In this document: positions 36,911-53,352 of the stretch, piece by piece | Layout of the letters: each line of letters begins with the position of its first letter | Numbering within the stretch: position 1 is the first letter of the stretch | Source: Promethearchaeota archaeon | Lineage (GTDB): Archaea > Asgardarchaeota > Lokiarchaeia > Sigyniarchaeales > SOKP01 | Length of the DNA: 64,000 nucleotides | Assembly (NCBI GenBank): GCA_019057795.1 | Contig: JAHLWS010000022.1 | Location: 13,729 to 77,728 of the forward strand | Reading direction: 5' to 3' | Made by a program: the position numbers and the translations under genes | Notes under the pieces: generated by a model | The model's input: only the letters and a program-made list of their open reading frames with translations | Told to the model about the DNA's origin: nothing | Databases searched by the model: none

Positions 36911-36924
36911 TAAAAGAAACGTTT
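36911..36924 (+). repeat. Candidate attL (14-bp direct repeat TAAAAGAAACGTTT)
   Basis: Identical 14-mer at 53339-53352. The pair brackets the genes from the integrase operon to the tail module. Confidence 0.45.
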
Positions 36925-37025
36925 TAATTCGAAAAAGTGATAAGAAAAGTATAACATTTAAATAAGATGATTGTATTATTTATATTATACAATAAAAACT
37001 AATAAAAAAGAGATGACTCAAAAAA

Positions 37026-37238
37026 ATGGTAAAATGTTTGTTAACCTACGAAAGCGACGATAAAGAATGGATCGAGTCTTTTGAATACATTAAGAAATAC
37101 GAAGCTTTAGCCTATATTATTAGGAGAAAAGAAGACGACGGTTCAATTGACGTAGAGATTAACGAAGTTTGTACTTCTAAAAAAGACCTCATTAAATTAA
37201 GAGATTTTTTGAACGGTTTAAATTTGGAGGGGAATTAA
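37026..37238 (+). CDS. Hypothetical protein (element)
   Basis: 70-aa ORF at the head of the integrase operon. Confidence 0.65.
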   Translation: MVKCLLTYESDDKEWIESFEYIKKYEALAYIIRRKEDDGSIDVEINEVCTSKKDLIKLRDFLNGLNLEGN

Positions 37239-37240
37239 AA

Positions 37241-37762
37241 ATGAGCGCAAAAGTTAAAGTTAGGAAGTTAAAAGCGCCTGAAGACATACGCAAAAAAATG
37301 ATTCATATCATGTTATCCGAACGAGAAATGGCCGAACTCGACGAGTTTAGGGAAGGAACTACTCGAACGGAGTTTATCCGACAAGCTTTAAAAGATAAAT
37401 ACGATAGGATCGAAAACCCTCAATTGTTTATGGGTAATGGCGCTTCCTCAAACAACGATCAAATCTCAGAATTTTTGAGCGAAATTAAAACTACCAACGT
37501 AGAAACTAAAAAAATGTTAAAAAAATTGGTAAGTTTAAACGAAATTAAAACCATACTAAAAAGCGTTCAAGCGATGGCAAATAAACCCGAAATCGAGAAG
37601 AACGAAAAAATAATTGTAGAATTACTAAGAGAAAAGAAAAAGTTAAAACCTTTAAAAATTATCGAACTTACCGGGTTAAGAAATAACGAAGTTTACGACG
37701 TAATTTCAAACGATTTAATGTTTTCAATTAACATGAATGGCGAGGTAATTTTGAATGAATAA
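37241..37762 (+). CDS. Putative DNA-binding regulator (N-terminal RHH-like, C-terminal wHTH-like)
   Basis: IHIMLSE....LDE.....RTEFIRQAL (RHH pattern) and IVELL...KLKP..IIELTGL....VYDVI (wHTH pattern). Confidence 0.6.
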   Translation: MSAKVKVRKLKAPEDIRKKMIHIMLSEREMAELDEFREGTTRTEFIRQALKDKYDRIENPQLFMGNGASSNNDQISEFLSEIKTTNVETKKMLKKLVSLNEIKTILKSVQAMANKPEIEKNEKIIVELLREKKKLKPLKIIELTGLRNNEVYDVISNDLMFSINMNGEVILNE

Positions 37763-38675
37763 TAAGGAAGAATGGCCTTCAAATCGCGAAATTATCGACA
37801 ATTACTTAAATTATTACAATAAGGGTTCTTACTCCTATAACACGCGAAAATCGAGCTTAAATTATTTTTTTAACCAAGAGAATTTTAATTTTAACGGTAA
37901 AATTTTCGAGATCAACACTTCAGTTTTGCTCGATTACCATAAGTTTCTAAAAAGCAAGGATATTACGGTCCAAACGCAAAAAAACAAGTGGAATATTTTA
38001 TCCTCTTTTCTAAATTACACCATGGAATATTACTATAAATTCGATTTCTTGGTAAAAATACCTAAGAAAACTATTAATTGGCGCGGTACTAACGGAAGCG
38101 GTAATAAGAAAGTAAAAGATTTGATCGAAAAATCTGACCTGGAAAGATTATTATTGCATTTTAAATTTAGGAACACGAAACACTACCTTATCTTTAGGTT
38201 GTTTGCCGAAACGGGCATGAGAAAATCTGAATTGCGAAACGTAAAGATTAACGATTTAGATTTGGAAAAGCGAACGATTAAATCTTTTGGTAAGACCGAA
38301 GACGTGGTTTATTATTTTACTAAAGATTTGGCTAAATTTTTGAAGCAATTTATATCAGGACGCAAAAAAGTAGACGTTAATTCCAATATCCTTTTTCTTA
38401 CTAAATACTTCAAAAAATACTCCGATAGGAGTTTTAACTTGCTTTTAAAAGAAGCTTGTAATAATTTAGGAATAGAATCTCATATTACTTGCCACACTTT
38501 TAGATGGACAATAAACACTTATCGAAAATTGATGGGTTGTAGTGGCGAGGATCGTAAAATACTCTTAAATCATCACGTTCAAGGCGTAAACGTTCAAAAT
38601 TATTTAATCTTAGATTACGCGACCTATATTAGCATGTACGATCAATATAATCCTTATACCGAGCTTAAGTATTAA
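37755..38675 (+). CDS. int: Tyrosine recombinase/integrase
   Basis: ETGMRKSEL (R), FGK (K), HTFR (HxxR), LLNH, NY. Catalytic residues appear intact. Confidence 0.92.
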   Translation: MNNKEEWPSNREIIDNYLNYYNKGSYSYNTRKSSLNYFFNQENFNFNGKIFEINTSVLLDYHKFLKSKDITVQTQKNKWNILSSFLNYTMEYYYKFDFLVKIPKKTINWRGTNGSGNKKVKDLIEKSDLERLLLHFKFRNTKHYLIFRLFAETGMRKSELRNVKINDLDLEKRTIKSFGKTEDVVYYFTKDLAKFLKQFISGRKKVDVNSNILFLTKYFKKYSDRSFNLLLKEACNNLGIESHITCHTFRWTINTYRKLMGCSGEDRKILLNHHVQGVNVQNYLILDYATYISMYDQYNPYTELKY

Positions 38676-38938
38676 CAATTTTTATTCTTTTTTTTAATCT
38701 TTTTTTCTATAATTATAATTAAATAAACGTATTATTTAAATATTATAATAAAATCTATTAACCAATTTTTTACGTCGATATATTTTACTATTTTAATAGT
38801 AAAAAATGTAAGTGTATAATACGCTTCTATTAATTCAATAAAATAGAAGACTATATATATTCAATTTGTTATATTAATGTGAGAATATAGTTCTATTGAA
38901 TTGTATTCTAATAAAATATAAAAACGAGGTTAGAAAAT

Positions 38939-39073: not shown

Positions 39074-39238
39074 ATGGCAATAAGCAACCTTAACCTAACA
39101 AACCAAAATCTAACTACAATTAAAAGATTGATGTATTCGCGTTTAGATACGCTATTCCAGAAAATAAATAATGGAGATGGTACGAATTCTGAAAATAAAA
39201 GTAAACTTGGTAACTCCGAACCCCAGGAAGAAGAGTAG
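39074..39238 (+). CDS. 54-aa hypothetical protein, directly coupled (TAA-ATG) to the RHH gene
   Basis: MAISNLNLTNQNLTTIKRLMYSRLDTLFQKINNGDG...EEE*. Confidence 0.5.
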   Translation: MAISNLNLTNQNLTTIKRLMYSRLDTLFQKINNGDGTNSENKSKLGNSEPQEEE

Positions 39239-39373
39239 AAAAAAAGGATCATATTCGCTTTATCCGGGCTTATTAGATTCTTTTTTTCTATTTAATAGAA
39301 TATCTTACGAATTTTTAAATCTTACCATTTTAAAGGGTTTTTGCGATAAAAATCAAAAGAGGTCGATCGCAAA

Positions 39374-42307
39374 ATGAACGTCTTAGATTGTTATCCCGAA
39401 GAATACAACATCTTATCGTGTAAAATAAGTTTCTTGGAAAACGGCAAAAAAGATATAATTTTCCTGGAAGATTGGAAAAAATACCAAAACGAAAAATATC
39501 CAAGAAACTTAATAAATAGCAATAGTTCTAATTTTTACGTTATTTGCGGGCAAATTTCAAATAATTTGATTGTTTTTGATTTTGATGTAGTTAAAAAAAA
39601 AGAATGTAATTCAGAGGAAATATACGGTAAAATTATCGAAATAGAACCGAGATTTAAGGAAGCCTTAACGATCCAAACTCAATCAGGTGGTCTTCACTTT
39701 CACGTTCAAGTCGAATCGATGGATTGCTATAATATGCTTAGTAGAAATAAGGATATACCGTGTAATCTCGAAGAGATTGACCATATCGACGTTCAAGGAG
39801 AAAAGAAAATCGCAATTTTATGGACCAAGATTATCAACCAAGAAAAGCCTTTAAAAATTACTAATTCGGAGTTTTATGAAATACTTGGTAAATTTAAGGG
39901 AAAAGAAGAAAAAGCGTTAGAAGTACCTAAAAAAGAAGTAAAAACAACGATTAATAACATTGATCTTAACAAATTGGATAAACCATATCGAGATTTTTTA
40001 AACGGTAAATTTAAAATTGATAAATATTGCGAAAAAACGGGGATTGGTGAAAACCAATATTGGAAGGATTTGTATTGGCACGTGTTAAAGAGGTTAGGAT
40101 TGTACCATTACGACCTATATCCAATTTTGGAGAAAACTCAACCGGAATTTTCTAAAGAGAAAACAGAGGCGCAATTGAAGTATAAATACCACGATTATAG
40201 GCTTCCATTCAACACAAAATCCAAACCAGGATTTATAAAAAAATCCAAATATGAACTTTATCCCGAATACTACAAAGAAACTGAAGAAATAATTACCGAT
40301 CGTGAAAAATTACGGAAAATATATCAAATACAAACAGGTAAGAGGGCAACTTGGATTCGTGATGGAAAAGAATTTTCTACAAATGATTTTTCGAGATGGG
40401 AGGCTAAGGTAAAAGGTAAAGCGTCGGAAGAAACAGTAAAACGCCAAGAAGAGCAAATCGTTGAAGAATTAATCGATGAATTCGATCTTCTCGTGTTAGA
40501 CGACACCAAACAAATACTTGTTAGGGAATACATGGCTTATCTATTTGAAATGAGAAATTTTGAAGACGAATTAAAAAGTAAAATCTTCCGAATAGAAAAA
40601 GGTTCTTATTCAAACGTTAAAAAAGATATTTTAGCCATGATAAAGGACGACAAACGAGTTAGGGTTAAACGAGATGAGTTCTATAACAAAACAGACATAA
40701 TACCGTTCAAAAATGGTGTTTACGATTTTAAAACTGATTATTTTTTTAAAATCGAACGAGTAAAGGATTTTAAATTCTTTTACGAAATATCGCACGATTA
40801 TAGGGAAGATAAAGAATATAAATGTCTTAAATTTAAAAAAATCTTAGTACAATGGATAGACAAAAAAACAAAGCAATATCATCGCAAAGGAAAAAGAAAA
40901 TTTCTATTAAACGATATTTTTGAAGCAATTGGATTAACTATGACCATGAACACCGGGTTTAAGAAGCATTTTATACCTTTAGGACCTACTGACGCGGGAA
41001 AAACGCAGTTCGGAAACATTAGAAACGCCCTTTTTGACAATAGAAACATGGTTGGAAGTTCTTTACAACGCATTGGTTCGAACGAATTTGGAACGGATAA
41101 TTTACAGTTCAAGGTAGCTCTGGCCTGCGACGAGCTTCCCGAAGGATTAATAAAACAAACGGGACCTATAAAAAACCTTTTAGGAGGAACTACGTTGATG
41201 CAAGGCGAACTTAAAGGAGGTAAAAAGTTTTTGTTTAAACCTTACGTAAAATGTTGGTTTAACGCTAATAAACCGGCAGAACTCAAGAATCCAAACGATC
41301 CCGCTTTTTACAATCGATTCATATTTATCTTTTTTCCTAACGAGTTTAAACAAGGCGATAAAACGTTTACTAACGACATCTGGGAAGACATCGTAAACGA
41401 CGACGACGAGATGCAGGGTATTATCCACGAAGCAATCGAAGGATATAAAAGGATTTTAGAGCGTAAAGGTTTTCGAAAAGAAGTAACCGAAAATACCCGA
41501 CACATTTGGCTTTACAATTCGGACCCAATATACAAGTTCCTACATAATTACACCGATAAAGACGACGAGTATCACGGTAAAATTACTGCAAAAGATTTTT
41601 TAGAAAAGTTTGCCGTTTACGGAAACGTTGCTTGGTCAGCCCAAAAAGTTTATGTCCGCCTCAACCAATATGGCGTGGTAAAATATATGGGTGATGAGTT
41701 CCAGAAACTTCGAGGTATTAAATGGAAGGAAGGAGTATGGGATGACGAGAATAACAAGGATGAGATAGAAAAGAAGAAAGAAAAAACACCTAAAATCATG
41801 GACGAATTTTTTTTAAAAGAAGAGCCTGAAATAATCGAACAACCAACTTTTGAACTTTTATTTACTCCCGAAGAAAAAGAATTAATCAAAAAGTTACAAG
41901 GAGAATTAGATTACATGAAAATACCCGTTTCGATGGACAATTTATGGGTTACTACGGGAGCAGATAAAGACTTTACTTTCCCGGAATTTGAAGCCATTAT
42001 CGAAAAATTGGATTTAATCGTCGAAGACGAAGAATTTGGATACAAAACGGTGAGATTACCTAAAAAAGAAACACAAATTATAGAAGAAGTAGATCCTTAT
42101 AATTTAGAAAAAAATATTGAGAAATTAGAAAAAGAAATTAAAGAAAAACAAGATGAACTTAAAAAGATTGACGATATCGAGAAAGTTAAAGAGATACAGA
42201 AAGAAATATATATAAAAAAAAAAGATCTAAAATTTTTCAAAGAAATAGAAAAAAAAGAAAACGAAGGTTTTGATAATTTAACAAAACTTTTGAAAGGTGA
42301 ACTCTAA
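39374..42307 (+). CDS. Primase-helicase: N-terminal Prim-Pol (AEP) domain plus D5-like SF3 helicase
   Basis: LIVFDFD (DxD), TQSGGLHFH, IPFKNGVYD (D5_N), GPTDAGKT (Walker A), CDELP (Walker B), FNAN (motif C), AFYNRF. Confidence 0.9.
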   Translation: MNVLDCYPEEYNILSCKISFLENGKKDIIFLEDWKKYQNEKYPRNLINSNSSNFYVICGQISNNLIVFDFDVVKKKECNSEEIYGKIIEIEPRFKEALTIQTQSGGLHFHVQVESMDCYNMLSRNKDIPCNLEEIDHIDVQGEKKIAILWTKIINQEKPLKITNSEFYEILGKFKGKEEKALEVPKKEVKTTINNIDLNKLDKPYRDFLNGKFKIDKYCEKTGIGENQYWKDLYWHVLKRLGLYHYDLYPILEKTQPEFSKEKTEAQLKYKYHDYRLPFNTKSKPGFIKKSKYELYPEYYKETEEIITDREKLRKIYQIQTGKRATWIRDGKEFSTNDFSRWEAKVKGKASEETVKRQEEQIVEELIDEFDLLVLDDTKQILVREYMAYLFEMRNFEDELKSKIFRIEKGSYSNVKKDILAMIKDDKRVRVKRDEFYNKTDIIPFKNGVYDFKTDYFFKIERVKDFKFFYEISHDYREDKEYKCLKFKKILVQWIDKKTKQYHRKGKRKFLLNDIFEAIGLTMTMNTGFKKHFIPLGPTDAGKTQFGNIRNALFDNRNMVGSSLQRIGSNEFGTDNLQFKVALACDELPEGLIKQTGPIKNLLGGTTLMQGELKGGKKFLFKPYVKCWFNANKPAELKNPNDPAFYNRFIFIFFPNEFKQGDKTFTNDIWEDIVNDDDEMQGIIHEAIEGYKRILERKGFRKEVTENTRHIWLYNSDPIYKFLHNYTDKDDEYHGKITAKDFLEKFAVYGNVAWSAQKVYVRLNQYGVVKYMGDEFQKLRGIKWKEGVWDDENNKDEIEKKKEKTPKIMDEFFLKEEPEIIEQPTFELLFTPEEKELIKKLQGELDYMKIPVSMDNLWVTTGADKDFTFPEFEAIIEKLDLIVEDEEFGYKTVRLPKKETQIIEEVDPYNLEKNIEKLEKEIKEKQDELKKIDDIEKVKEIQKEIYIKKKDLKFFKEIEKKENEGFDNLTKLLKGEL

Positions 42308-42634
42308 ATGACGTTAAAGATTAAAGAATCCGAAACCCTCGAGCATTACAACGCCATCGCTTACAAATACTATTTAAATTCGGGCGAAAAAAGGGAATGG
42401 CGTAGGGATTTTTGTAGAACTACTCCGTTTCACAAAGGTAAAGAGGCGCTTAAACAACACTACGCCGAAAACGGAGCGGTCAAATGTTTTATGTGTAATA
42501 AACCAATCTTAAGAGGCGAACGCACCCAAATCCTTTACCTAACCGGGATTCCCGACCCAAGAAAAATATTCAATCCAAAAACGGCTAAAATATGCCATAG
42601 ATCGTGCCTTCAAAGTTCGAGGTTGAGGGTATAA
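42308..42634 (+). CDS. Zn-finger/HNH-like protein
   Basis: CFMC...ICHRSC. The catalytic HNH histidine is not evident. Confidence 0.55.
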   Translation: MTLKIKESETLEHYNAIAYKYYLNSGEKREWRRDFCRTTPFHKGKEALKQHYAENGAVKCFMCNKPILRGERTQILYLTGIPDPRKIFNPKTAKICHRSCLQSSRLRV

Positions 42635-42877
42635 ATGGAAAATTCAAAACTTATCAACCAAGTTTTTTTAAAAGAATACGAGAAAATACAAATAAAATAT
42701 CCTGAATTTGTTAAAAGAATCGAAAATCGAGCTAATTGGATCGCCATCCTCTTAGACAAATCTATTACTTTTCTCAAATTGCTCGGTTTGGAAGGGGAAT
42801 TTAAAAGCAGGTTAAACGATAACGAACTTTTCGTTTACAATTCCATGAAAAAAATAAAAGAGGAAGTGAACAAATAA
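42635..42877 (+). CDS. Hypothetical protein (element)
   Basis: TAA-ATG-coupled ORF. Confidence 0.65.
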   Translation: MENSKLINQVFLKEYEKIQIKYPEFVKRIENRANWIAILLDKSITFLKLLGLEGEFKSRLNDNELFVYNSMKKIKEEVNK

Positions 42878-43282
42878 ATGACATATAGCTCCGAGTTGGA
42901 AATTTACAAACAAGACTTCGATTGCGAATTAAGAGGCGTTATTTCAAAATCTAAAGAATTTCAAGCGCAATTCCCCGATTTAGACGTCCTCGAAAACAAA
43001 CGCTCCGAAAAGGTTAAAAAAGCGTTAGATTCTTTCGTGCAATATCACATAGGAATTTTTGACAAGTTAAAAATCGAAATAGAGTTAGAAATGGCATTAA
43101 ACACCCTAAACGAACGATGTAAGAACGAAATAGAGGAGAGATTACACCCGATCGAAGATTACGAGTATTGGGAAGAAGACGATTTAATAAGCGTTTGTTC
43201 AAATAACGATCTGAAAAATCTATTAAAAATTATAGAAAAAATATCGTTAAATGAATTGATAATTATAGAAAAAGAGGCGTGA
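42878..43282 (+). CDS. Hypothetical protein (element)
   Basis: TAA-ATG-coupled ORF with a GAGG SD. Confidence 0.65.
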   Translation: MTYSSELEIYKQDFDCELRGVISKSKEFQAQFPDLDVLENKRSEKVKKALDSFVQYHIGIFDKLKIEIELEMALNTLNERCKNEIEERLHPIEDYEYWEEDDLISVCSNNDLKNLLKIIEKISLNELIIIEKEA

Positions 43283-43286
43283 AATA

Positions 43287-43427
43287 ATGGAAAACAAGAA
43301 AATAATTGTAATTCACGAAGTACCGTATAAAGTTCTAAAAAAATATTTCGAAGAAGAAAAAACGCTCGAAAGCCTTAAAGCCATAAGGGACTACGAGGAG
43401 TTTGTTAAGAAAAGAATTAAAAATTAA
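43287..43427 (+). CDS. 46-aa hypothetical protein (element)
   Basis: Manual translation MENKKIIVIHEVPYKVLKKYF..., SD GAGGCGTGA. Confidence 0.55.
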   Translation: MENKKIIVIHEVPYKVLKKYFEEEKTLESLKAIRDYEEFVKKRIKN

Positions 43428-43452
43428 ATTATAAAAGAGGTGAAAAAACAAC

Positions 43453-43626
43453 ATGAGCGAAGAATTAACGGAAAACAATAAAAGAACTTTTAAAGCGATT
43501 AATTGGTTAAAAGAAAGGCACGAAACTAACGATTTACTTCACTTGTTAAAAGACGTACCTGAAAACGAGATAAAGATGTTTTTAGAAGTTGGTAAATTTA
43601 TCGAAATGATGGAAAAATTAGAATAA
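43453..43626 (+). CDS. 57-aa hypothetical protein (element)
   Basis: Manual translation MSEELTENNKRTFKAINWLKERH..., SD GAGGTGA. Confidence 0.6.
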   Translation: MSEELTENNKRTFKAINWLKERHETNDLLHLLKDVPENEIKMFLEVGKFIEMMEKLE

Positions 43627-43669
43627 TTAATTTTTTTTATTTTAAATTAAAAATTACCAGGAGAAAATT

Positions 43670-44014
43670 ATGAAAATATTCCATAAAAAAGACCAAGAAA
43701 AAGTTTCTAAAATAGTTCCAGAAAATAATGCAGTTGAAAATGCATTTATAACAAAAAAACAAATTCCCGAAACCGACGAGATCCGCCCATTCCATTTCTC
43801 AAAACATGGCTTCGAAATCCTATGGAACGCGACCAAAAACCACTACGTAATATTTATCAACCCGGAAATTTACGACCTCCCCATCCCCATCATGTATAAA
43901 CTAAACGAGAAGTTATCGGACCTATTCTTCGAGTTCTATTGGGAAGAAAAAAACAAACAAGCCAAAAAAGAATACGAAAACGTCAGACTCGGCAGGTTCA
44001 TAGACGGCGCTTAA
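43670..44014 (+). CDS. Hypothetical protein (element)
   Basis: 114-aa ORF with an AGGAG SD. Confidence 0.65.
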   Translation: MKIFHKKDQEKVSKIVPENNAVENAFITKKQIPETDEIRPFHFSKHGFEILWNATKNHYVIFINPEIYDLPIPIMYKLNEKLSDLFFEFYWEEKNKQAKKEYENVRLGRFIDGA

Positions 44015-44026
44015 ATTTTATTTTTT

Positions 44027-44045
44027 ATCCCATTCGGGATTTTTT
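44027..44045 (+). terminator. Hairpin plus T-tract ending the replication operon
   Basis: ATCCC-attc-GGGAT followed by TTTTT, just after the stop at 44014. Confidence 0.5.
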
Positions 44046-44058
44046 CCCTTCTTAATAA

Positions 44059-44266
44059 AATACTTAAAATACTTAAGAAAATATTTATAAAAAAATATCA
44101 TCACCCTTATACCCATCGCAATTGTTAGTAAAATACTTACAATACTTATGACTTTTTTAAATTACTATATATAAGCAGGGGGTGGGGTATATGTATTTTT
44201 TATAACGATATATACCCCCCAACTTATGACCGTGATGTCACCTATTTTATAAGTATTATAAGTTAA
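44059..44266. other. Candidate replication origin of the element (iteron-like repeats)
   Basis: AATACTTA pairs at 44059/44068 and 44132/44141 (9-bp period), inverted TAAGTATT at 44250, and the inverted repeat GGGGTATAT (44184-44192)/ATATACCCC (44210-44218). Confidence 0.6.
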
Positions 44267-44644
44267 TTTATTTCTCAAAATATTACTAATGTAATAACTC
44301 TTAAATAGCGTTCTTATTACTATTATATATTATTAGAATAAGACTTGAGAAGTGGATTAGGATGGAATTAGAAGGGTTGTAATAGGAAAATAGAATTATG
44401 TTATGACGTGAAAATAATGGAACGAAATATAGAAATTAGGAAAATAAGGGATATATTGGGTATATTTTTAATTTAATTTACTTGGGTTAGGAAGTTGTTA
44501 ATAAAAAAGTACGAATCTACGAATTGAAAGTAAGTGGTAATAAAAGTTGGAATGTTAGAATAATTTAAGGTTATAATTAATTCGAATTTTACTTGATGAA
44601 CTTCTTAAAATATAGATTTTAGGATCGAAAAATGATATTTTAAT

Positions 44645-44773
44645 GATAAGAAATTGGGTATTTTTAGGGAAAATATGTGCTGCCATACTTTTATTGAAAA
44701 GTTTTTAATTTTTGTTCGGATTAATTGTAAAAAATATAAATTTGAATGGCCTTCCATGATAAAAAAATAATCC
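44645..44773 (+). repeat. Diverged ~130-bp repeat, copy 2 (copy 1 at 35283-35412)
   Basis: See copy 1. Confidence 0.75.
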
Positions 44774-44972
44774 CATCCTTTACCCACGAAAGTTGGTAAA
44801 GAAAAATAATTTAGAATTGACGGAAAAACTTTTTTCCTAATCAGAAAAATCTATTTTTTTAACCGTTAATAGAATATTCACCTAACGGTCGATCGTTGTT
44901 ATTTTTTAACAAATTATTAATGAGAAATAGCCTAAGAACGTAGAATAAGCGTAAATAAATAATTTATTGAAG

Positions 44973-45343: not shown

Positions 45344-45778
45344 CTAATATCTGTGGGAGCGTAGGGCGAGGGTAATGGCGTTTAATCGTTCGAGTTCGGA
45401 TTGTTCTTTTTCGATTATTTTATCTGCGACTACTTCGGGAATGGGTTGGAATTCGTTTTTAGAATAGAAGGGGATGTCGTATCCCTTTCTTATTGCTTGT
45501 AATTGGTCTTTAGGTGGAGTTGCTGGGTGGCCGAATTGCTCAAAATATTGACATCGGTAAACGTGGAGCTTGTTTTTGAAGTCGTTTATGTTAGCAATGA
45601 AAGGTCGATATTCTTCCTGGAAGTAATTACAAGCCTGATCCAACGTAGAAAGCGGGTAATCCCGCATGAATTTAAATAGTTTAGAGCGTAGGGAACCGGG
45701 TCTGAAGGCTCGGGAAAAGCGTTGGGAGTATCTTGGCGTCTTATAGTTGATTTTTTTCCGGGTTCGGTTTAATAGCAT
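45344..45778 (-). CDS. Basic hypothetical protein (element)
   Basis: 144-aa ORF with an Arg/Lys-rich N-terminus, divergent from the structural-like operon. Confidence 0.6.
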   Translation of the reverse strand: MLLNRTRKKINYKTPRYSQRFSRAFRPGSLRSKLFKFMRDYPLSTLDQACNYFQEEYRPFIANINDFKNKLHVYRCQYFEQFGHPATPPKDQLQAIRKGYDIPFYSKNEFQPIPEVVADKIIEKEQSELERLNAITLALRSHRY

Positions 45779-46002
45779 AATAAAATAAAATAGGAAGAGA
45801 GGCTTATATCAACTTCCTATTAGTTTAAATTTTTTAATTAGATTTAGGTTATTAGATATATGTTTAAGAAACATATAATATTATTTATTTATGGGTTAGA
45901 TTCATAAGTTTTATAAAGTGTTATTACCAATTATCAATATGAGAAGTAGGAAGTTAATTCTTACTTCTAAAAAAATTATAAAAAGGGTTGATAAAAAAAA
46001 AC

Positions 46003-46950
46003 ATGAGTATTCAAGATTTAAAAAAGAACTTAGACGCGAAAATGAAGGGTTTGAGGTCGCTTAAGTTTGGTTTTACCGATAACGCGACTCCGAGTTTTAC
46101 CGAAGTGGCCGATGGGATCGATATTGACGCTTCGGGAGTAGCTTTTGATAAAAATAAACTTGCTGAGAAAATCGAACTCGCTAAAAAAGAAAAATTAGAT
46201 TTACAAAAAAAGAAAGATGGCGCTATTAAAGACGACGAGGTTTACACGGGCGAGGATTCGACGGGTTTTGGTGGTCAGGGCGATAAGGAGCAATTTATAT
46301 TGGCTTGTATGCAGGCAGGCGGGAGTTTAGAGAATTGCGAAAAGACTTGGTTGTTAAAGTTAGCCGGTTATGGTATGACGCCTGAGTTGGCAAAATTAAT
46401 TGAAACTTTAGGGAAAACGAAAAGCGTTGACACGCTCGAGTATCGAGACGGCGATTTAGAGCGCATAAAGAACGATTTTGGAGTGGATTTAAAGCCTATA
46501 ATCGAGAAGCTAAAGAGAGTAGACGGGATATGTGCTAACAATAAAAAGTTGGTCGCGGAAAACAAAAAACTTAAAGACGATTTGGTCGGAATGAAGTCTA
46601 TTTACGATGCGTTGCAGACGAGTTGGGTAAAGAAAGCAGAGGATCGAAAGCTCGAGTTAAAGGAAGTATTATCTAAAGATTACGACGAAACCGACGATTT
46701 TTTGAAAGAAAAGAGTTTAGAAGATCTCGAAAGTTACCTAAGAATCTATAAAAAGGTTGGTAAAAAAGACGACGGCGTTAAGCTTACTCCCGAAGAGGAG
46801 CGGGAAAAAGACATGAACGATAAATCCAATGGTATCGAATTACCACATCGTATTAATCAAGGCGGTATAATTAGCGATTTTGAGGGTTATATCGATCGAA
46901 AGATGGAAATAGAGCGAAAAGAAAAGTTTGGGTGGGGTAAGGAAGAATAA
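46003..46950 (+). CDS. Charged coiled-coil protein, possible capsid scaffold-like
   Basis: Asp/Glu/Lys-rich with coiled-coil heptads, first gene of the rightward operon. The function is inferred. Confidence 0.6.
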   Translation: MSIQDLKKNLDAKMKGLRSLKFGFTDNATPSFTEVADGIDIDASGVAFDKNKLAEKIELAKKEKLDLQKKKDGAIKDDEVYTGEDSTGFGGQGDKEQFILACMQAGGSLENCEKTWLLKLAGYGMTPELAKLIETLGKTKSVDTLEYRDGDLERIKNDFGVDLKPIIEKLKRVDGICANNKKLVAENKKLKDDLVGMKSIYDALQTSWVKKAEDRKLELKEVLSKDYDETDDFLKEKSLEDLESYLRIYKKVGKKDDGVKLTPEEEREKDMNDKSNGIELPHRINQGGIISDFEGYIDRKMEIERKEKFGWGKEE

Positions 46951-47699
46951 TGGGATTCGAGGATTTAAAAGGTTTGAGTAAGGCGGAACTTTACGTCGTT
47001 TTAACTGATTTAGCAAACACTCGAACTAACGCCTTCGGATTTAATGAATCTGGTCAACAGATTTACGATTTAGCGGAGGGTTTGAAGTTTGGCGTTTTAA
47101 CGCCTGAGGATATAGTTGGATCGGGAGATTTAGACGGTATAATAAGCGATTTTGTTGAGGAAGTTAAAGACGACGGGATATCTCCTGAAATGATAAACGA
47201 GATTTTAGTGGATAAGTTTCACGTAGGTAAAAAGCTCGAGATTGATAAGACCGGAAAAGCCAGATACGTGAAAGACGATGGAGCGCCTCAGGATTTTGAA
47301 GTTTACCTTAGGAAGCCTGAAGTGGAAGTTAAACCCGAGATTAAAGAAGATTTTACTGAAAAAATCTTAATGGTCAAACTTAAAGAAAAGAGCGATAATT
47401 TGGGTAAAGAATACCCGGAATTGTTTGGTAAAGATACTACTATTGACGACGCAGTCGCTTTAAAGAAAAAACTCTTAAAAGAGAAAGCAGAACTCGAGGA
47501 TAAGATTAAAGAAGACGGAGTAAAAGAAGGTTATAGCAAACAAGAAATCGAATATTACGTAAATAATTTACTCGAAGATTTAGAGAAAAAAGACGATTTT
47601 GTCGATGCAGAGACTTTAAAGAGTTATAATAGCATAAAAGGTAAGTTAAAAGCCAATTTACAAGAGATTTTATTGGAATTTAACGATAAAGGGGAGTAA
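46950..47699 (+). CDS. Charged coiled-coil protein related to the preceding gene
   Basis: Shares GIISDF, LKFG and KDDG motifs with 46003-46950. Confidence 0.6.
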   Translation: MGFEDLKGLSKAELYVVLTDLANTRTNAFGFNESGQQIYDLAEGLKFGVLTPEDIVGSGDLDGIISDFVEEVKDDGISPEMINEILVDKFHVGKKLEIDKTGKARYVKDDGAPQDFEVYLRKPEVEVKPEIKEDFTEKILMVKLKEKSDNLGKEYPELFGKDTTIDDAVALKKKLLKEKAELEDKIKEDGVKEGYSKQEIEYYVNNLLEDLEKKDDFVDAETLKSYNSIKGKLKANLQEILLEFNDKGE

Positions 47700-47701
47700 T
47701 C

Positions 47702-48178
47702 GTGCCGGTGCGACAAGTAGACGTATTGGAAGTATTATTTAACTCTTCTATACCGTTAAGCGTTAACGATATCGTTGGTAAGTTAAATCTCAACGAATCT
47801 ATTGAAAGTACGCTAAAAACAACGCCAAAAAAAAGAGTCTCGACGTGTTTGCGTTATTTAGAAAAAAAAGGTCATGTAGCGAGTTATAAATTTCACGAAA
47901 AAGACGAGATTGTATATAGACACAAAGGAGAAATGATTAAGGATTTAATCGTTCACGTTATGGTTTCGAACTTACATCCTTTCTACAAAACCGAATTTAT
48001 GGAATTAGTGTCTCCGGCGTTAACCGACGAGAAACGCGAGATTATTGGTAAGGAAATCGAAGTTTATAAAGCTTATTTAAAAGAAAAAGGTCCGAACGAA
48101 AAAAGTCTTGAGGAAGTTCGAGACAAAGTAATACGAATTAATTATTATAACGAAAAAAAGAACGAATATTTTACTTAA
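47702..48178 (+). CDS. Winged-helix DNA-binding protein (element)
   Basis: VLEVL.....PLSVNDIV..L...KRVSTCLRYLEKKGHV. Confidence 0.65.
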   Translation: MPVRQVDVLEVLFNSSIPLSVNDIVGKLNLNESIESTLKTTPKKRVSTCLRYLEKKGHVASYKFHEKDEIVYRHKGEMIKDLIVHVMVSNLHPFYKTEFMELVSPALTDEKREIIGKEIEVYKAYLKEKGPNEKSLEEVRDKVIRINYYNEKKNEYFT

Positions 48179-48193
48179 ATAGGTGAAAAAATT

Positions 48194-48988
48194 ATGAGTT
48201 TAGTAAAATTGGAAGGTTATTTAGAAAGAATTACGGACCCGAATAGAAGAAGCGTGTTAAGAGCCGTTAAGAAGTACGTGGTCGAATTAGAAGGGTATTC
48301 AAGTAGAGTTGGCGAGTTCGCTAAGAGATATACGGTGACCGACCCTAACGATATAGCTTTTTACGAAGGAGCCGGGATTAACTTAAGCAAGGATTTCCCA
48401 ACGCAAATAGCGGAATTTAAAGAAAGGATCGTTAGGGAAGCTATAAACGGTAGTATCGATAAACAACTTATAGAAAACGTCTTGGCCTATTTTTGTTGCG
48501 ACGTGGTTAAAATCGAAAAGTTATGGGACGATTTAGTGAACCCTAAAAGCGTCGATGGGGAGAAAGAATTAATCGAAAAAATAGCCGGTTTTCAAAAGGC
48601 TCTGAACGGTCTTACTTGGCATCCAAGGTCTCACGCGCTCGATAAAAGCGAGACCGAATTAATCGTATCCCGTATTTTAGAGCGATTGCGTAAGCACGGG
48701 TTAAAGGGGATTGGAAGGCCGTTTTTGATCCGCTTGAAAGTTTTGAAAAAGTCGCCCGAAAAAGAAGGAGAGCCGGTAACCATCGAAGAGATGGAAGTAA
48801 TTGCGAATAGGATCGAGAAGGAAGTTAAATATTGGGAAGAATTGCTTACAGAACACGCGAATAAATGTGCCGAATCGAAAATGATTAAAGAGATAATGCG
48901 GGAACAAAAGAAAGAATTCCCTAAAATAACGCCTGAAATCGTAAAGGAAGAAATAATAGGGAAAATATCGCTTAATAAAACGGGTTGA
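48194..48988 (+). CDS. Hypothetical protein (element)
   Basis: 264-aa ORF, SD AGGTGA. Confidence 0.7.
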   Translation: MSLVKLEGYLERITDPNRRSVLRAVKKYVVELEGYSSRVGEFAKRYTVTDPNDIAFYEGAGINLSKDFPTQIAEFKERIVREAINGSIDKQLIENVLAYFCCDVVKIEKLWDDLVNPKSVDGEKELIEKIAGFQKALNGLTWHPRSHALDKSETELIVSRILERLRKHGLKGIGRPFLIRLKVLKKSPEKEGEPVTIEEMEVIANRIEKEVKYWEELLTEHANKCAESKMIKEIMREQKKEFPKITPEIVKEEIIGKISLNKTG

Positions 48989-49317
48989 TCGTTATTATAG
49001 AAGGAAATACTCCGATTACGATTCGAATAGAGACGCCTGAAAGGGCTATATTGCGGGAAATCAACGAGAATCTCTATAATGGAGACCATAATTACGGACC
49101 ATTGTTACAACGGATTTGTAATTTTGCAGTTCACGAATTTATGAGAGAATATAAAGATTCGAAAAAGAATCAAGCGATTAAAGATCGTAAGGACGGTTTA
49201 CAAGACCTACGGGAAACGCTTATAATCGAAGGGCTTCCAAAATTAGAGAAGGAAATTATAGGGTTAGGGGTTTCGAACGCTCGTAGTTTCTTTTCTAAGA
49301 TGTTCGAGAAAAAATAG
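48985..49317 (+). CDS. Hypothetical protein (element)
   Basis: 110-aa ORF overlapping the previous stop (TTGA), followed by a G/C hairpin at 49337-49363. Confidence 0.6.
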   Translation: MIVIIEGNTPITIRIETPERAILREINENLYNGDHNYGPLLQRICNFAVHEFMREYKDSKKNQAIKDRKDGLQDLRETLIIEGLPKLEKEIIGLGVSNARSFFSKMFEKK

Positions 49318-49415
49318 GAAAATTTAATTAGAAAACGGGGGGATGTTTTTTTTTATTCCCTCCAAAAAAACATTTACTTAGAATAAAATAATAAAATAAG
49401 AGTTGAAAAGAAAAA

Positions 49416-49658
49416 ATGAAAATAAAAAAATTAATATTAATGGTTATATGTTTTATTGGGTTAATAGGTTTATTTGGTTCTTTATCGTATAGTTTAATCA
49501 TAATTATAGTTATTTTTTCAGAAGGGATGATTTCGTTTATTGAACCAAATCTTTTAATGTTAACAGTAGAATTAATTATGATTATTATTAGTATTGTTAG
49601 TTTTCCAATTATTGTTTCTTCTACAGTAAAAAATATATTCTTTAAAAAAATTAATTAG
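49416..49658 (+). CDS. Small two-TM membrane protein (element)
   Basis: Two long hydrophobic stretches. Very AT-rich. Confidence 0.55.
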   Translation: MKIKKLILMVICFIGLIGLFGSLSYSLIIIIVIFSEGMISFIEPNLLMLTVELIMIIISIVSFPIIVSSTVKNIFFKKIN

Positions 49659-52211
49659 GTGAATTATGTTATTAAATATTATAATTACGAAGATTTAGGG
49701 ATAACGAGCGCTAAAAAACCGTTTAACACGCATTTATTTTGGCACCACGCAACTTATGGTTTTGTTATGGTAGATTCAGTAGATCAAACGGTTTTATTGT
49801 TTTCTACTAAAGCACGTCTATTAATTGACGGTTCCGATTGGGATACGGTAGATTTATCTGATAACACTAATTCCTATAAAATTCAGGCGGGTTGGTTAGA
49901 CGGAAACGATTTGTGGTTAGTTATGTGTGATAATCCAGGAGACGATTTTGGAGTATGCTACGTAGAATTAGACGATTCTAACGATTGTAATCCCGTAGGA
50001 ATTGGAGCAGGTGGGACTGCTGATGCAGGTACGGTTTACGCTTACGATATTTTTAAAATAGGAACGGATGTTTTTGTGTTAAATAATGAGGAAAGGACGA
50101 ATGTCCCAAAAATAGTAGTGTGGGATGTTGATACAGCTCCTTTTATTGAAAAAGACTCTTGGAATGGGGCAGATTGTACTTATAATCTTGGTCCTTATTC
50201 TTTTGTTGTTATTGTTGGGAATATAGTTTATTTTACGGTTGACATGATCGGTTGTAATTATGTTGGTATAATGACTTATAATCATACGACAACGACAATT
50301 ATAGCGCCGGTTGAATATACGGATGCAGGATATTCTCATCCGTCTTCAAGAAATCAACTTTCAATCGCTTACGACGGTTCTGATATTTTATATTTTATCG
50401 TAAAAAAAGACGCTGATTCTAAAAATTACCTTTATTCTTATGTTATCTCTACCAATACTTTAACCAAATTAGGCGAATATAACATTTGTTTACAATTGAA
50501 TCGTTCTACTGCTTCGGGCGTTATGGAAAAGGCGTTCCATTTAACCGAGCCGAGAGTGTACCAACTACACCCTTACGCGAAATACCAACTATATTACGTC
50601 GCCAATCTCGGATCGGGCAACGTAATAATCGCTATAACGGATAATTTCTTGATGCTTAACGGAGGAGAGATGTACGAGTATACCGACCACGCCAACAAAA
50701 TGGTAAAAGTGGAGTTCGTTCACGAGATTCAAGAAGCTTCCTACGGTTCTTTAGGCGTCGTTCGAAACGAGATAACGATCGAGAAGGGGATGTTTACGCA
50801 GATTATAGGGACTTTCACCACGAACGAGTTGGATCGGTTGTATAAGGGGACTTACAACTTTAGGGACGACGCTGTGGGCTCAGAACCTTCTGGATGGACT
50901 TCTAACAACGATGCGGATTGTACTACGACCATAATAGCGTCCAAAAGCGGTCATAAAAAGGTTTTACAACTTAGTGATCAGAGTGGTGTCGGAAAAACAG
51001 AAATTACGCAAACGTTTGTTGATGGTGCGCAAGTGAGCGATACTATTGAATTCTATTGGGAGACTTCAGATATATCAAAAAATAGTATTATATTTATTAA
51101 AAAAGGTGCCTCAGTAGGCGTTGCGTTATATATTAATAATTCTAAATTTCGATATTACGACGGGGCTTTTCAAGATTCAGGTGCCGTTCCTACTAATAAC
51201 GTTATATCTCGTCATAAGGTTGTATTTGATTGCGCTACGGATACTTTTGATTGGTATATAAACGGAGTTAAGGAAGTCGATGGTGGTGGTTTCTGGAACG
51301 TTCAAGACGATTTAGATAGAATAACTTTTCGAACTGTTGACATTGATACAGGATATACTACTCTCTTTGATGCTATTTCTTATTCTTGGGACGTTAATTA
51401 CAACGTAGGCGACAACCTTTCAGTGGAAGCCGGGGAAACCGACCAAGTAATTTTCGAGGGTATAGTGGTCGATTTCGACGGCGAACGGCTCCAAAAAGTC
51501 TGGTTAGAATCGCCCGCCAAGAAAGAACTCGAAAGAAAGCCAAGGGGCGATTTCTCGGGCAGGTCGGACGAGATCATGGCTTCGTTAGTTTCTACCTATT
51601 GCAAGTATATTACCGTAGGAACGCTTTCGAGCGGGACGGCGATGGGTACGATAACTTTCGCGGGAGACAAAACTCTACAAACCATATTTAACGAGTTATC
51701 CCTGTTCGAGAAATGGAAGTGGAAGTTAGACCCTCAAGGAAGGCTATTCTTTAACGATTGTACGATCGACACTTTAGTCGATTTGAGCAAAACGGATAAA
51801 ATATGGAGGGTTAAAACGGGCGAGGTTAGAGAACCTTACAATTACTTTTACCTAAAAGGGGCGATACTTTCAAATGGTCAGTTAGTAAAGGAAATCAAAG
51901 AAGCAGACGACCTCGCGTCCCAACAACAGTTCGGATACAATCCTTTCGAAGAAACTTTCGCTTCTTTTAACGCCCAAGGGATTTTAAACCAATTAGCAAC
52001 CAATATAAAAGCTAAGCTAAAAGAAACGCCTTTAATGGTCGAGTTTTGGCACTACGACGCGGACTTAGGTATGCTTGCTATAATGGAAACGATAACATTC
52101 GTTTACGACACGACCAACGTAAACGTTGCTTCAGATCAATTTCTAATCAATAGGGTATTGTTTAAAGACGGAAAATATGGAGGTTATACCATTGCCGACG
52201 AACTCGTCTAA
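49659..52211 (+). CDS. Tail-tip/baseplate hub-like protein with N-terminal beta-rich region and inserted ConA/LamG-like domain
   Basis: VIFEGIVVD...L...EKWKWKLDPQGRLFF resembles phage hub proteins. The insert YKGTYNF.DD..GSEPSGW...GHKKVL...FDWYING...FDAISYSWD.NYNVGDN looks like a lectin beta-sandwich. Assigned by eye. Confidence 0.6.
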   Translation: MNYVIKYYNYEDLGITSAKKPFNTHLFWHHATYGFVMVDSVDQTVLLFSTKARLLIDGSDWDTVDLSDNTNSYKIQAGWLDGNDLWLVMCDNPGDDFGVCYVELDDSNDCNPVGIGAGGTADAGTVYAYDIFKIGTDVFVLNNEERTNVPKIVVWDVDTAPFIEKDSWNGADCTYNLGPYSFVVIVGNIVYFTVDMIGCNYVGIMTYNHTTTTIIAPVEYTDAGYSHPSSRNQLSIAYDGSDILYFIVKKDADSKNYLYSYVISTNTLTKLGEYNICLQLNRSTASGVMEKAFHLTEPRVYQLHPYAKYQLYYVANLGSGNVIIAITDNFLMLNGGEMYEYTDHANKMVKVEFVHEIQEASYGSLGVVRNEITIEKGMFTQIIGTFTTNELDRLYKGTYNFRDDAVGSEPSGWTSNNDADCTTTIIASKSGHKKVLQLSDQSGVGKTEITQTFVDGAQVSDTIEFYWETSDISKNSIIFIKKGASVGVALYINNSKFRYYDGAFQDSGAVPTNNVISRHKVVFDCATDTFDWYINGVKEVDGGGFWNVQDDLDRITFRTVDIDTGYTTLFDAISYSWDVNYNVGDNLSVEAGETDQVIFEGIVVDFDGERLQKVWLESPAKKELERKPRGDFSGRSDEIMASLVSTYCKYITVGTLSSGTAMGTITFAGDKTLQTIFNELSLFEKWKWKLDPQGRLFFNDCTIDTLVDLSKTDKIWRVKTGEVREPYNYFYLKGAILSNGQLVKEIKEADDLASQQQFGYNPFEETFASFNAQGILNQLATNIKAKLKETPLMVEFWHYDADLGMLAIMETITFVYDTTNVNVASDQFLINRVLFKDGKYGGYTIADELV

Positions 52212-52707
52212 AAGAGATATTTTACCTAAAAAAGAAAAGAAATTAGACCAGGAAAATTCTCAACTAATTCAACAAATAGCTACAAATATAAATGTTTTTA
52301 CATCGTTCCCGATAGGAGCAAAAATAGATTATTTCGGAACGGGAATTAAAGGAACGATAACAACGAGAGATTACGAGATTTCAATAGCAAACGGAGACGA
52401 TTTCGACATGAAAGGCTGGTTCGTAGCTAACGGTCAAGAGTCTACGCCTGATTGTATTGATAAATTCGTTAGAAACGAGGCTATTTCGGGAGTAGGTGGT
52501 GGCTCTGACGACGCAGTAGTGGTTGCTCACACTCATAATACTGCGACTTATATTAATGGTTTGGCTGGTGATGAGCCTGTTCTTACCTATGCGGGTAGAG
52601 CTTCGCCAGTTTGGCGTGCTGATATAATACAATCTACTGGTGAATCTGGCGTAGGAAAAAACGTACCAGCAAAAATAAGCGCGATACCGATTATTAGAAT
52701 GAGTTAG
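52177..52707 (+). CDS. Tail fibre / tail-collar domain protein
   Basis: PIGAKIDYFG...GWFVANGQESTPD..DKFVR...GGSDDAVVVAHTH...N.P.......IIR matches the phage tail-collar and fibre-tip pattern. The start may be TTG 52192, after GGAGGT. Confidence 0.75.
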   Translation: MEVIPLPTNSSKRDILPKKEKKLDQENSQLIQQIATNINVFTSFPIGAKIDYFGTGIKGTITTRDYEISIANGDDFDMKGWFVANGQESTPDCIDKFVRNEAISGVGGGSDDAVVVAHTHNTATYINGLAGDEPVLTYAGRASPVWRADIIQSTGESGVGKNVPAKISAIPIIRMS

Positions 52708-52803
52708 AATAGAATTAGAGGCTCGAATTTTAAAATTGGAAATAACTAAAGCTTAAAAAATTTTAAAAATCAAATTAAACGAAGAAAGAGGTGAAAAAAT
52801 AGA

Positions 52804-53172
52804 ATGATGAATAGTATAACCGAAGAAAAAAAAGAAAATCAACTAAATTACGATTTTTATTTGAAAACGATTCACGAAGCGATTCGTGAAGAGACAAAAA
52901 ATCATCTAACGTACCTTAATAAAATTATCGTTGAAAAACAAGAAAATAAAGATTATTTACAGAGACTTTCTTCCTTTGAAGTAATTTTGAAAAAATCCCA
53001 CGAGGAAATACGCCTGGAAGACGTTATTTCAAAAGAATTAGAAAAAGTAGAAAACGTTTTAAGAGACGCAATAGAAGTCCGAGAGTCTTATTTCGAGGCG
53101 ATAAAAAAAACCATGGGCCGATTAAAAAAAACCATAGGTTATTTAAACGAAGAAATCAACGCAAACCATTAA
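52804..53172 (+). CDS. Coiled-coil hypothetical protein (last gene of the element)
   Basis: 122-aa ORF, SD GAGGTGA. Confidence 0.65.
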   Translation: MMNSITEEKKENQLNYDFYLKTIHEAIREETKNHLTYLNKIIVEKQENKDYLQRLSSFEVILKKSHEEIRLEDVISKELEKVENVLRDAIEVRESYFEAIKKTMGRLKKTIGYLNEEINANH

Positions 53173-53338
53173 ATAATTTACTTTCTTTTTCTATTTTTAA
53201 TAGCGCGGTATTAAAGTAAAAAAATAGTTAATTTTTAGGGTTAAATCGTATATAAAAAAAGATTAAAAATTAAAATCGTTATTTTACCTGGACCTAAAAT
53301 TTTCTTAAAAACTTCATAATCTTATCATTTTCAAAACT

Positions 53339-53352
53339 TAAAAGAAACGTTT
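53339..53352 (+). repeat. Candidate attR (14-bp direct repeat TAAAAGAAACGTTT)
   Basis: Identical to 36911-36924, and ends 16 bp upstream of the inferred alaX start. Confidence 0.45.

Follow-up and report, generated by a model that had tools for sequence, protein, structure and literature searches.

An integrated element of 16.4 kb occupies positions 36911-53352 of the window analyzed here, the whole stretch of 64,000 nucleotides (nt) that corresponds to positions 13729-77728 of contig C22 in the 4.95-Mb, 87-contig genome G000 of a member of the Promethearchaeota, the current formal name of the Asgard/Lokiarchaeota lineage. The element would be an integrative, self-replicating unit and most likely a satellite of verdandivirus-like tailed viruses, a reading to which we give about an even chance and which is favored because it explains why selected, intact genes for interaction with a virion reside on a replicon that appears unable to build one. 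An initial annotation, made from the letters of the window alone, had proposed a satellite that remodels the capsid of a helper virus and mounts its own receptor-binding tip. Both borrowed virus parts turned out to be real, and neither a capsid protein or packaging ATPase nor a sign from relatives that head genes had simply been deleted came to light; the life cycle of such a satellite is what we infer from these parts.

The limits of the element are given by empty sites in genomes of the same genus. In G246 (locus L032) and G249 (L034), the homolog of 36804-36924 runs into the homolog of 53339 onward with an overlap of 14 nt, and both sites, as well as L033 of G241, read ...CGATCG-TAAAAGAAACGTTT-CACGAAG... 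In G000, the left end reads ...CGATCG-TAAAAGAAACGTTT-TAATTCG... and the right end ...AAAACT-TAAAAGAAACGTTT-CACGAAG..., the 14-nt core being a direct repeat present at both ends of the element:

36911-36924, attL core, TAAAAGAAACGTTT; an identical 14-mer lies at the other end, and the empty sites equal left flank, core and right flank
53339-53352, attR core, TAAAAGAAACGTTT; 80 nt upstream of the alaX-like gene (53432-54523)

Therefore, the element is one 16.4-kb insertion at 36911-53352, and the boundaries first proposed for it are exact. Besides these three related genomes, the uninterrupted site is found in one related sediment population, that of run X3 (a third run of the same study), whose contigs pass from 36924 to CACGAAGTGA, i.e. 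the sequence from 53353, with a depth of 20-65 for the flanks and below 5 for the element. In runs X1 and X2, the source sediment metagenomes, the element is integrated at a depth equal to that of the flanks. Thus, close strains are polymorphic for the element, and its movement as a unit was recent. A reading as two tandem elements, based on a 9.4-kb unit between copies of a 60-85-nt repeat at 35328 and 44690, was rejected because the empty sites fix the left end at 36911 and leave the left copy outside the element.

The first of the two borrowed parts lies in the late block, whose genes are the following (lengths in amino acids, aa; ORF, open reading frame):

44973-45272, minus strand, 99-aa gene, 56% identical to its homolog in contig L042, dN/dS 0.19
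45344-45778, minus strand, 144-aa basic protein, 52% identical to its L042 homolog, dN/dS 0.21
45988-46950, plus strand, 320-aa scaffold-like protein, a stand-alone homolog of the C-terminal third of a 670-aa protein of a complete tailed provirus
46950-47699, plus strand, 249-aa acidic protein, family-specific, dN/dS 0.17-0.20
47702-48178, plus strand, 158-aa protein, possible winged helix-turn-helix (Pfam Penicillinase_R E 0.0055, below the cut-off)
48194-48988, plus strand, 264-aa protein, family-specific, all alpha in its AlphaFold2 (AF2) model, of low confidence (predicted local distance difference test, pLDDT, 58)
48985-49317, plus strand, 110-aa ORF, of which the N-terminal half alone is common to relatives (tblastn and blastn against L042 and L043)

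Residues 84-319 of the 320-aa protein align with residues 482-666 of the 670-aa protein (hhalign 99.1%, E 1.3e-18; tblastn 30% over residues 80-319; phmmer E 1e-19). The gene of the latter is located in the provirus L001 (NCBI GCA_004196295.1) between the portal gene and the pair of genes for a decoration protein and the major capsid protein (MCP). Moreover, the two proteins share a Cys-containing motif, TGFG..AC.Q.GGS..C..W, and the extreme C-terminus ...DFEGYID...KFGW. The place of the 670-aa protein and its charged C-terminal domain are those seen in the protease-scaffold fusions of lambda (C/Nu3), Mu (I/Z) and P2 (O). The 320-aa and 249-aa proteins are both highly charged. The family of the scaffold-like protein has no match in a PDB sequence search.

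Two scaffold-like proteins had been annotated in this block. The assignment would hold for the 320-aa protein, on the hhalign match and the shared motif, and is weak for the 249-aa protein, where it comes from composition; this protein has no ESM Atlas match, no similarity to virus head or tail proteins by hhalign, and one other 50% cluster among 1.84 billion representatives. Also, three homologs of about 60% identity were found for the 264-aa protein. The winged helix-turn-helix proposed for the 158-aa protein (65% identical in L042 and L043) is suggested by the sub-cut-off Pfam match listed above. The label of regulators given to the two minus-strand genes found no supporting match. The genes for the 264-aa, 110-aa, 80-aa membrane and 122-aa proteins had been left out of the initial list.

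The late block is not peculiar to this genome. Its genes (99, 144, 320, 249, 158 and 264 aa) are found at 50-66% identity in at least four other metagenome samples, on contigs L042, L043, L055/L056 and L057/L058. L042 has the same order as the element, with the 99-aa and 144-aa genes on the minus strand followed by the 320, 249, 158 and 264-aa genes and a short ORF, all at 50-66% aa identity, and the other, shorter contigs carry parts of this order. For every gene of the block, dN/dS is 0.16-0.41, the less saturated L042-L043 pairs included. The conserved order across samples together with these ratios argues that the head-less late block would be an old, selected arrangement and no product of a recent deletion. 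Then, the relatives do not point to a simple deletion of head genes in the element, which would have made it a defective provirus, since L042 and L043 carry the same head-less block under purifying selection, and the description of the ORFs as intact agrees with the same dN/dS values.

A more distant relative is the replicon of L059, a 16.9-kb contig of SRR14803105 whose helicase is 64% identical to that of the element. Its plan is that of the element: an integrase (484 aa), a primase-helicase with a DnaG-type zinc ribbon and, behind it, a gap of about 1 kb, then divergent helix-turn-helix (HTH) regulators, small ORFs and a beta-helix spike of large size (851 aa), which is about 30% identical to part of the spike of a provirus on contig C78 of G000; no head genes are recognizable in L059. 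In 400 species genomes of the phylum, no full-length hub, no member of the scaffold-like family and almost no relative of the primase-helicase were found. IMG/VR gave no match to the hub, to the 320-aa protein or to the alignment of the 264-aa protein, and a scan of JGI metagenomes gave nothing beyond a previously known 2.3-kb contig.

The second borrowed part is a tail-tip cassette that follows the late block:

49416-49658, plus strand, 80-aa hydrophobic membrane protein (by hydropathy), first gene of the cassette
49659-52211, plus strand, 850-aa tail hub (Tal-like) with beta-propeller and LamG-type lectin (by AF2 model, structure search and context of homologs)
52177-52707, plus strand, 176-aa fiber-like protein, overlapping the end of the hub gene (PHROG tail fiber E 1.5e-3)
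52804-53172, plus strand, 122-aa charged protein, probably coiled-coil, last gene; no significant family match

The AF2 model of the 850-aa protein, a confident one (pLDDT 88.5, from a 57-sequence alignment), shows a 7-bladed beta-propeller inserted at about residues 7-345 and a LamG-type lectin at about residues 397-579, the latter matching 5mqr with Z 23.7 in VIA-align. In the same search the hub matched the baseplate of a contractile injection system (9gtr_q, Z 20.7), the tail of Haloferax tailed virus 1 (9h4p_BD, Z 19.6) and the Mu-like 3d37 (Z 19.6), these values of about 20 being measured over the model range 1-850, and Foldseek found Mu-type 3cdd and minor tail proteins of siphoviruses in BFVD. 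By its predicted fold, the protein would then be a baseplate hub of gp27/gp44 type, in agreement with the hub-like protein of the initial annotation.

Metagenomic homologs of the hub number 57, many of them of about 630 aa and without the lectin cassette. In all the contexts that were fetched (L001-L005 and L026-L029), the hub homolog follows a short tape-measure protein (TMP; PHROG TMP, E 2e-8) and a 142-aa beta-rich protein (171 aa in the same Dit-like position of L004/L005), with a module of portal, MCP and major tail protein upstream. Unlike in these viruses, TMP and Dit are absent next to the hub of the element. The hub domain itself (residues 590-850) shares 62-84% identity with the hubs found in complete tailed viruses; for the propeller, the range is 33-54%. 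A small gene of 68-85 aa stands directly before the hub in four of six contexts (L001/L002, L003 and L029); those of L001 and L003 encode membrane proteins as small as the 80-aa protein of the element, and that of L029 has 68 aa. A reading of the 80-aa ORF and the large adhesin as parts of a spindle-shaped virus (wyrdvirus/His1-like) was rejected because tailed proviruses carry such proteins before the hub and the adhesin has a tail-hub fold; the AAA+ morphogenesis ATPase of spindle-shaped viruses was not found in the element by Pfam.

For the 176-aa protein, the first 30 residues or so are 70-75% identical to those of the proteins encoded next after the hub in L001 and L003. The tail-collar identity first given to it was not recovered, there being no Pfam match at E <=0.01 and no detectable Collar domain, and the PDB sequence search gave no match either; a fiber remains suggested by the weak PHROG hit, the conserved N-terminus and the position. 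The adhesin domains also occur outside viruses. The LamG cassette (50820-51420 of the window, hub residues 388-588) matches domains in very large host ORFs of 89 other genomes among the 400 of the phylum, and the propeller (49680-50690, residues 8-344) is 38-39% identical to part of an open frame of 20,619 aa in G207 (contig C13). On these grounds, adhesins of viruses and giant surface proteins of Asgard archaea may have exchanged domains.

Within the limits of Pfam, PHROGs, hhalign and one low-confidence fold, the element appears to lack genes for building its own virion. Its late ORFs have no Pfam or PHROG match to a capsid, portal, terminase, tube or tape-measure family. Pfam is blind to Asgard virus proteins, having missed TerL and the portal of the C78 provirus, both found by PHROGs and tblastn; therefore, family alignments of the 320, 249, 158, 264 and 110-aa proteins were compared by hhalign with actual proteins of related Asgard (pro)viruses (MCP, portal, TerL, decoration, major tail, tape-measure and Dit-like proteins). 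With the exception of the scaffold match, every pair remained at or below 2% probability; the 264-aa protein showed no similarity to MCP, portal, TerL or TMP, and no Dit gene was found in the element by Pfam, PHROGs or this comparison. The HK97-fold MCP, portal and large terminase were not found in the element; in the C78 provirus, PHROGs and tblastn did detect TerL, a portal and an MCP homolog. The latter (locus L030, C78:~300-16400) is an integrated verdandivirus-like tailed provirus at a contig edge of the same genome, with a 394-aa integrase, an N6/N4 DNA methylase, TerL (phrog_38, E 8e-42), portal, tail genes, a 310-aa MCP homolog that is 28% identical to the MCP of L004, and a 1353-aa NosD/beta-helix spike. 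Thus, the earlier statement that no MCP, portal, terminase, tail tube or tape measure is recognizable stands in these searches, and a hidden capsid protein or packaging ATPase, which would have pointed to an autonomous virus, was looked for among the late ORFs and none was found.

The other half of the element would provide integration and replication:

37026-37238, plus strand, ORF of 70 aa from the ORF list; no Pfam or PHROG match
37241-37762, plus strand, 173-aa protein with a weak ribbon-helix-helix (RHH) N-terminus (Pfam RHH_1 E 0.0048, below the cut-off), overlapping the integrase start
37755-38675, plus strand, tyrosine integrase, 306 aa (Pfam Phage_integrase E 3.9e-18)
39074-39377, plus strand, two overlapping small ORFs of 54 and 68 aa ahead of the primase gene, putatively coding; no family matches
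39374-42307, plus strand, 977-aa fusion of archaeo-eukaryotic primase (AEP) primase-polymerase, D5_N and superfamily 3 (SF3) helicase (Pfam D5_N E 1.9e-6, DUF5906 E 1.7e-10)
42308-44014, plus strand, five small packed ORFs of 108, 80, 134, 57 and 114 aa; no Pfam, PHROG or PADLOC match
44015-44972, non-coding gap of about 960 nt with iteron-like repeats and a hairpin, candidate replication origin

In an alignment with three other integrases, the catalytic residues R156, H247, R250, H273 and Y283 are invariant, which together with the Pfam match bears out the integrase. The order integrase then RHH proposed for this region has to be reversed, the RHH-like gene preceding the integrase gene, and a homolog of the 173-aa protein (27% identical) lies ahead of a second integrase on contig C82. 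The primase-polymerase/helicase is likewise confirmed by the D5_N and DUF5906 matches and by three AEP motifs (VFDFDV, SGGLHFH and IDVQG) that can be read directly in its N-terminus, a region with no match in the PDB sequence search; its helicase part is 58-64% identical to the counterparts in L059-L061. In the gap there is a pair of 30-nt repeats (44049-44078 and 44122-44151), each with two AATACTTA units, and a GGGGTATAT/ATATACCCC hairpin at 44184-44218, and the GC skew climbs past about 44 kb. The origin of replication placed here by the initial annotation is therefore plausible from the sequence repeats, as a candidate. Taken by their sequence, functions of integration and of autonomous replication would be present in the element.

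If the element is a satellite, the infection by a helper of L001/L003/L026 type, or its induction, would lead to excision of the element, which would then replicate from the repeat region by means of its own primase-helicase. The C-terminal motif that the two have in common would let the 320-aa protein compete for the capsid protein with the scaffold domain of the helper, and this competition would redirect or resize the capsids. By analogy, a close mechanistic precedent could be the capsid redirection of CpmB/Sid type, as SaPI CpmB and P4 Sid redirect or resize capsids in bacteria. Moreover, in this member the element's own hub and fiber could be built onto the tails of the helper, giving particles with the receptor specificity of the satellite.

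Several observations weigh against such a satellite. No helper was identified for the element. The C78 provirus has no DNA or protein similarity to it, the scaffold candidate of this provirus does not end in the KFGW C-terminus, and genes for Dit, TMP and MCP of L001 type were not found in the G000 assembly; the borrowed parts point to viruses of L001/L003/L026 type and not to the C78 provirus. Among the signs of a mobilized satellite named beforehand, a co-occurring tailed provirus is thus present and shares nothing with the element, and neither a circular junction nor excess depth was seen in the assembled contigs, the element having the depth of its flanks. The scaffold function of the C-terminus of the 670-aa parent is one that we infer from position and composition, because the leads of an ESM Atlas feature search with this parent to protease/scaffold clusters of Mu gpI type are sub-threshold (scores 0.83). 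Four conserved late proteins have no recognizable fold or family in the searches made, and no small terminase, cos or pac site was recognized in the element. Also, the relatives of the late block are known from short contigs alone, and in L042 and L057 the strand flips to unrelated genes where the tip cassette would be expected. The similarity within the family ends inside the 110-aa ORF, at about 49.06-49.15 kb, and the absence of the cassette from L042 and L057 argues that it (about 49.15-53.3 kb) would be an accessory, later acquisition of this member and no family trait. Then, of the proposed remodeling of the capsid combined with an own receptor-binding tip, the parts are present, and the tip cannot be ascribed to the family.

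Matches to CRISPR spacers, another of these signs, were not found either. G000 has two short CRISPR arrays with different repeats (C19:~30-330 and C68:1-200), and the four spacers of C19 match neither the element, the C78 provirus nor any fetched locus. A DNA search of the 400 species genomes gave nothing but AT-rich noise of short length; nine of the matched loci were fetched, and all of them lie outside CRISPR arrays.

An account that we consider unlikely is that the element is an integrative plasmid or an interference/defense element that is not packaged, its scaffold and hub acting as decoys against infecting viruses or in surface adhesion. Such an account fits a plasmid-like replicon (integrase, primase-helicase and iteron-like gap) whose helicase module is common to the otherwise unrelated elements L059-L061, the chromosomal depth, and the lack of any recognized packaging gene or signal; the hub propeller and LamG domain also resemble domains of giant host surface proteins, and integrase-bearing circular Asgard mobile genetic elements (MGEs) without MCP have been reported and left unassigned (PMC13700489). 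However, PADLOC gave no significant match on the element, and a complete gp27-type hub domain at 62-84% identity, a cognate membrane protein and a conserved fiber N-terminus exceed the needs of a decoy. Moreover, interference and hitch-hiking are compatible, as P4, PICI and PLE do both. Somewhat more doubtful is an autonomous virus of an undescribed kind, with the 320, 249 and/or 264-aa protein as a new capsid protein or nucleoprotein and the hub-like protein as an adhesin at a vertex or terminus. The four conserved late proteins without recognizable fold or family would leave room for it, archaeal viruses often use capsid proteins unrelated to the HK97 and jelly-roll folds, and Medvedeva et al. 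left several CRISPR-targeted Asgard MGEs as possible new viruses (bioRxiv 10.1101/2021.07.29.453957). In this case, however, the 320-aa protein is homologous to an internal head-assembly domain of HK97-type viruses and not to a shell protein, L042 and L057 without a hub would have no adsorption device, no packaging ATPase is present among the genes recognized, and the small membrane protein that resembles a spindle-virus capsid protein is a conserved neighbor of the hub in tailed viruses.

On the other hand, the element could be a defective provirus or a recombinant scar, i.e. what is left of a verdandivirus-like provirus after loss of the genes for its head and tail shaft and fusion to a plasmid replicon, the viral parts serving no function today, which we hold to be improbable. 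The intactness of all ORFs speaks against it, as does the head-less block, whose occurrence in the same order in at least four other samples (50-66% identity, dN/dS 0.16-0.41) would reflect long-term selection. Verdandiviruses reportedly have no replication genes, so that the replicon would be no remnant of a provirus, and the polymorphism between close strains indicates a recent movement as a unit. The closest homologs of both virus-derived parts do reside in complete tailed proviruses, and the point inside an ORF at about 49.06-49.15 kb where the tip cassette joins the family block would be a recombination joint, both of which such a history would explain.

Compared with known systems, a satellite of this kind resembles SaPI/PICI and P4 in having an integrase, its own replicase of primase-helicase type with an origin, no capsid, portal or terminase genes, and integration at a specific short att site. 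As for SaPI/PICI, the relation to a scaffold runs through the C-terminal end, as that of CpmB to the 80alpha scaffold. The differences are that the host is archaeal, that the element has no sequence relation to any PICI or P4 protein, that no TerS, cos or pac was recognized and no helper shown, that it has its own tail hub and fiber, absent from P4 and PICIs, and that its 16.4 kb are near the size of a verdandivirus and not about a third of it. Markers of PICI (Pri-Rep, Stl/AlpA, TerS and Cpm) and of P4 (alpha, Sid, Psu and delta) have no PHROG match in any ORF of the element. The resemblance would thus be one of organization only.

With the verdandivirus-like (pro)viruses (L001-L005 and L026-L029), the element shares a homologous hub with adhesin, the fiber N-terminus, the scaffold-like domain, a small membrane protein before the hub gene and a distantly related tyrosine integrase (22-23%). 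It differs from them by the absence of TerL, portal, decoration protein, MCP, major tail protein, tape measure and the 142-aa Dit-like protein, and by a primase-helicase, whereas verdandivirus genomes, of 20 kb or less (Medvedeva et al., bioRxiv 10.1101/2021.07.29.453957), reportedly carry no genes for replication. As judged from its sequence relations, the element would fall outside every bacterial satellite family and outside the verdandiviruses. An identity with FylV1, a 16-kb Lokiarchaeum provirus, was rejected, FylV1 having a different site, a double jelly-roll MCP and no replicase.

Among the archaeal satellites, by the count of a 2025 preprint, pSSVx and pSSVi were the two described before it added the SRCE candidates, all of them tied to spindle-shaped viruses (bioRxiv 10.1101/2025.02.15.638363). 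These also join a plasmid-type replication module to an incomplete set of virion genes from the lineage of the helper; however, their helpers are spindle-shaped and the borrowed genes encode an AAA+ ATPase and/or a small hydrophobic MCP, whereas a head-tailed virus is the origin of those of the element. Part of the virion gene set is likewise kept by capsid-forming PICIs and the Streptomyces MiniFlayer, the latter with its own tail fiber (PMC10690885). The division is the reverse of that in the element, since they have their own capsid and packaging genes and borrow tails or replication, whereas the element brings replication and a tail tip and has no capsid. NMV2S, a 3.8-kb circle, is a candidate satellite of the Asgard siphovirus NMV2 put forward in a preprint of August 2026 (bioRxiv 10.64898/2026.08.12.739948). 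Compared by description only, it is also a proposed satellite of a tailed Asgard virus and encodes a helicase-primase, but it has an Arc-like regulator and a Cas4-like nuclease, has neither integrase nor morphogenetic genes, and inserts into the genome of the helper.

Satellites of tailed viruses are well studied in bacteria, and for Asgard archaea we know of one small candidate so far, proposed in 2026. The claim that nothing equivalent had been described in these archaea consequently needs to be qualified by NMV2S, which has no morphogenetic genes. We put forward tentatively, and with somewhat less than an even chance, that the element would be a satellite of a head-tailed archaeal virus with morphogenetic genes of its own, the first of this kind. 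Its family core would include a stand-alone mimic of the scaffold domain of the helper, and this member would in addition have captured a complete tip cassette (hub with propeller and lectin adhesins, and fiber), with which it would choose its host receptor while using the head and tail shaft of a helper. The novelty of such a satellite is tempered by the NMV2S proposal, by the unassigned Asgard MGEs without MCP (PMC13700489) and by the lack of packaging evidence. If the satellite reading is true, scaffold mimicry as a way of hijacking capsids would be an independent development in the archaeal lineage that is closest to eukaryotes, and the element would be a case of a satellite that replaces the receptor-binding tip of its helper with its own. 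It would also offer testable pairs, namely the 320-aa protein with a capsid protein of L001 type, and the hub with the 142-aa protein and the tape measure. To our knowledge, genetic tools are still lacking for Asgard archaea, and a small replicon that integrates precisely (att site, integrase and replicase) would be a candidate backbone for them.

The attachment site lies in no tRNA gene and sits in the upstream leader of the following gene, 80 nt from it:

53432-54523, alaX-like gene for a 363-aa AlaX-like editing protein (Pfam tRNA-synt_2c, C-terminal end, tRNA_SAD and DHHA1)

Of 41 other genomes in the genus, 29 have this gene in conserved form. It is 83-91% identical to genes of metagenome-assembled genomes of Promethearchaeota/Promethearchaeia, in line with the Asgard host assumed in the initial annotation. 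Its look of a truncated alanyl-tRNA synthetase gene raised the possibility of an alaS split at the right flank, which was rejected, the AlaX-like protein being whole and conserved in relatives.

Just to the left of attL, the window has a variable stretch (35285-36842), of which relatives have a much shorter version (about 414 nt in G249). It includes a HicB-like antitoxin gene at 36444-36659. At 35328-35412, outside the element, lies an 85-nt copy (84%) of 44690-44772 of the element, and a 95-nt repeat at 36160-36254 has a second copy on contig C71. The stretch may be the remnant of an earlier related insertion.

Finally, the same genome has a second small element with an integrase (locus L031, C82:~116.5-125.5 kb). 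Its integrase is 50% identical to that of the element, with an RHH-like gene upstream, and the HTH regulators reach 43-47% identity with their L059 counterparts. A stray C-terminal fragment of an integrase lies at C82:121514-121675.

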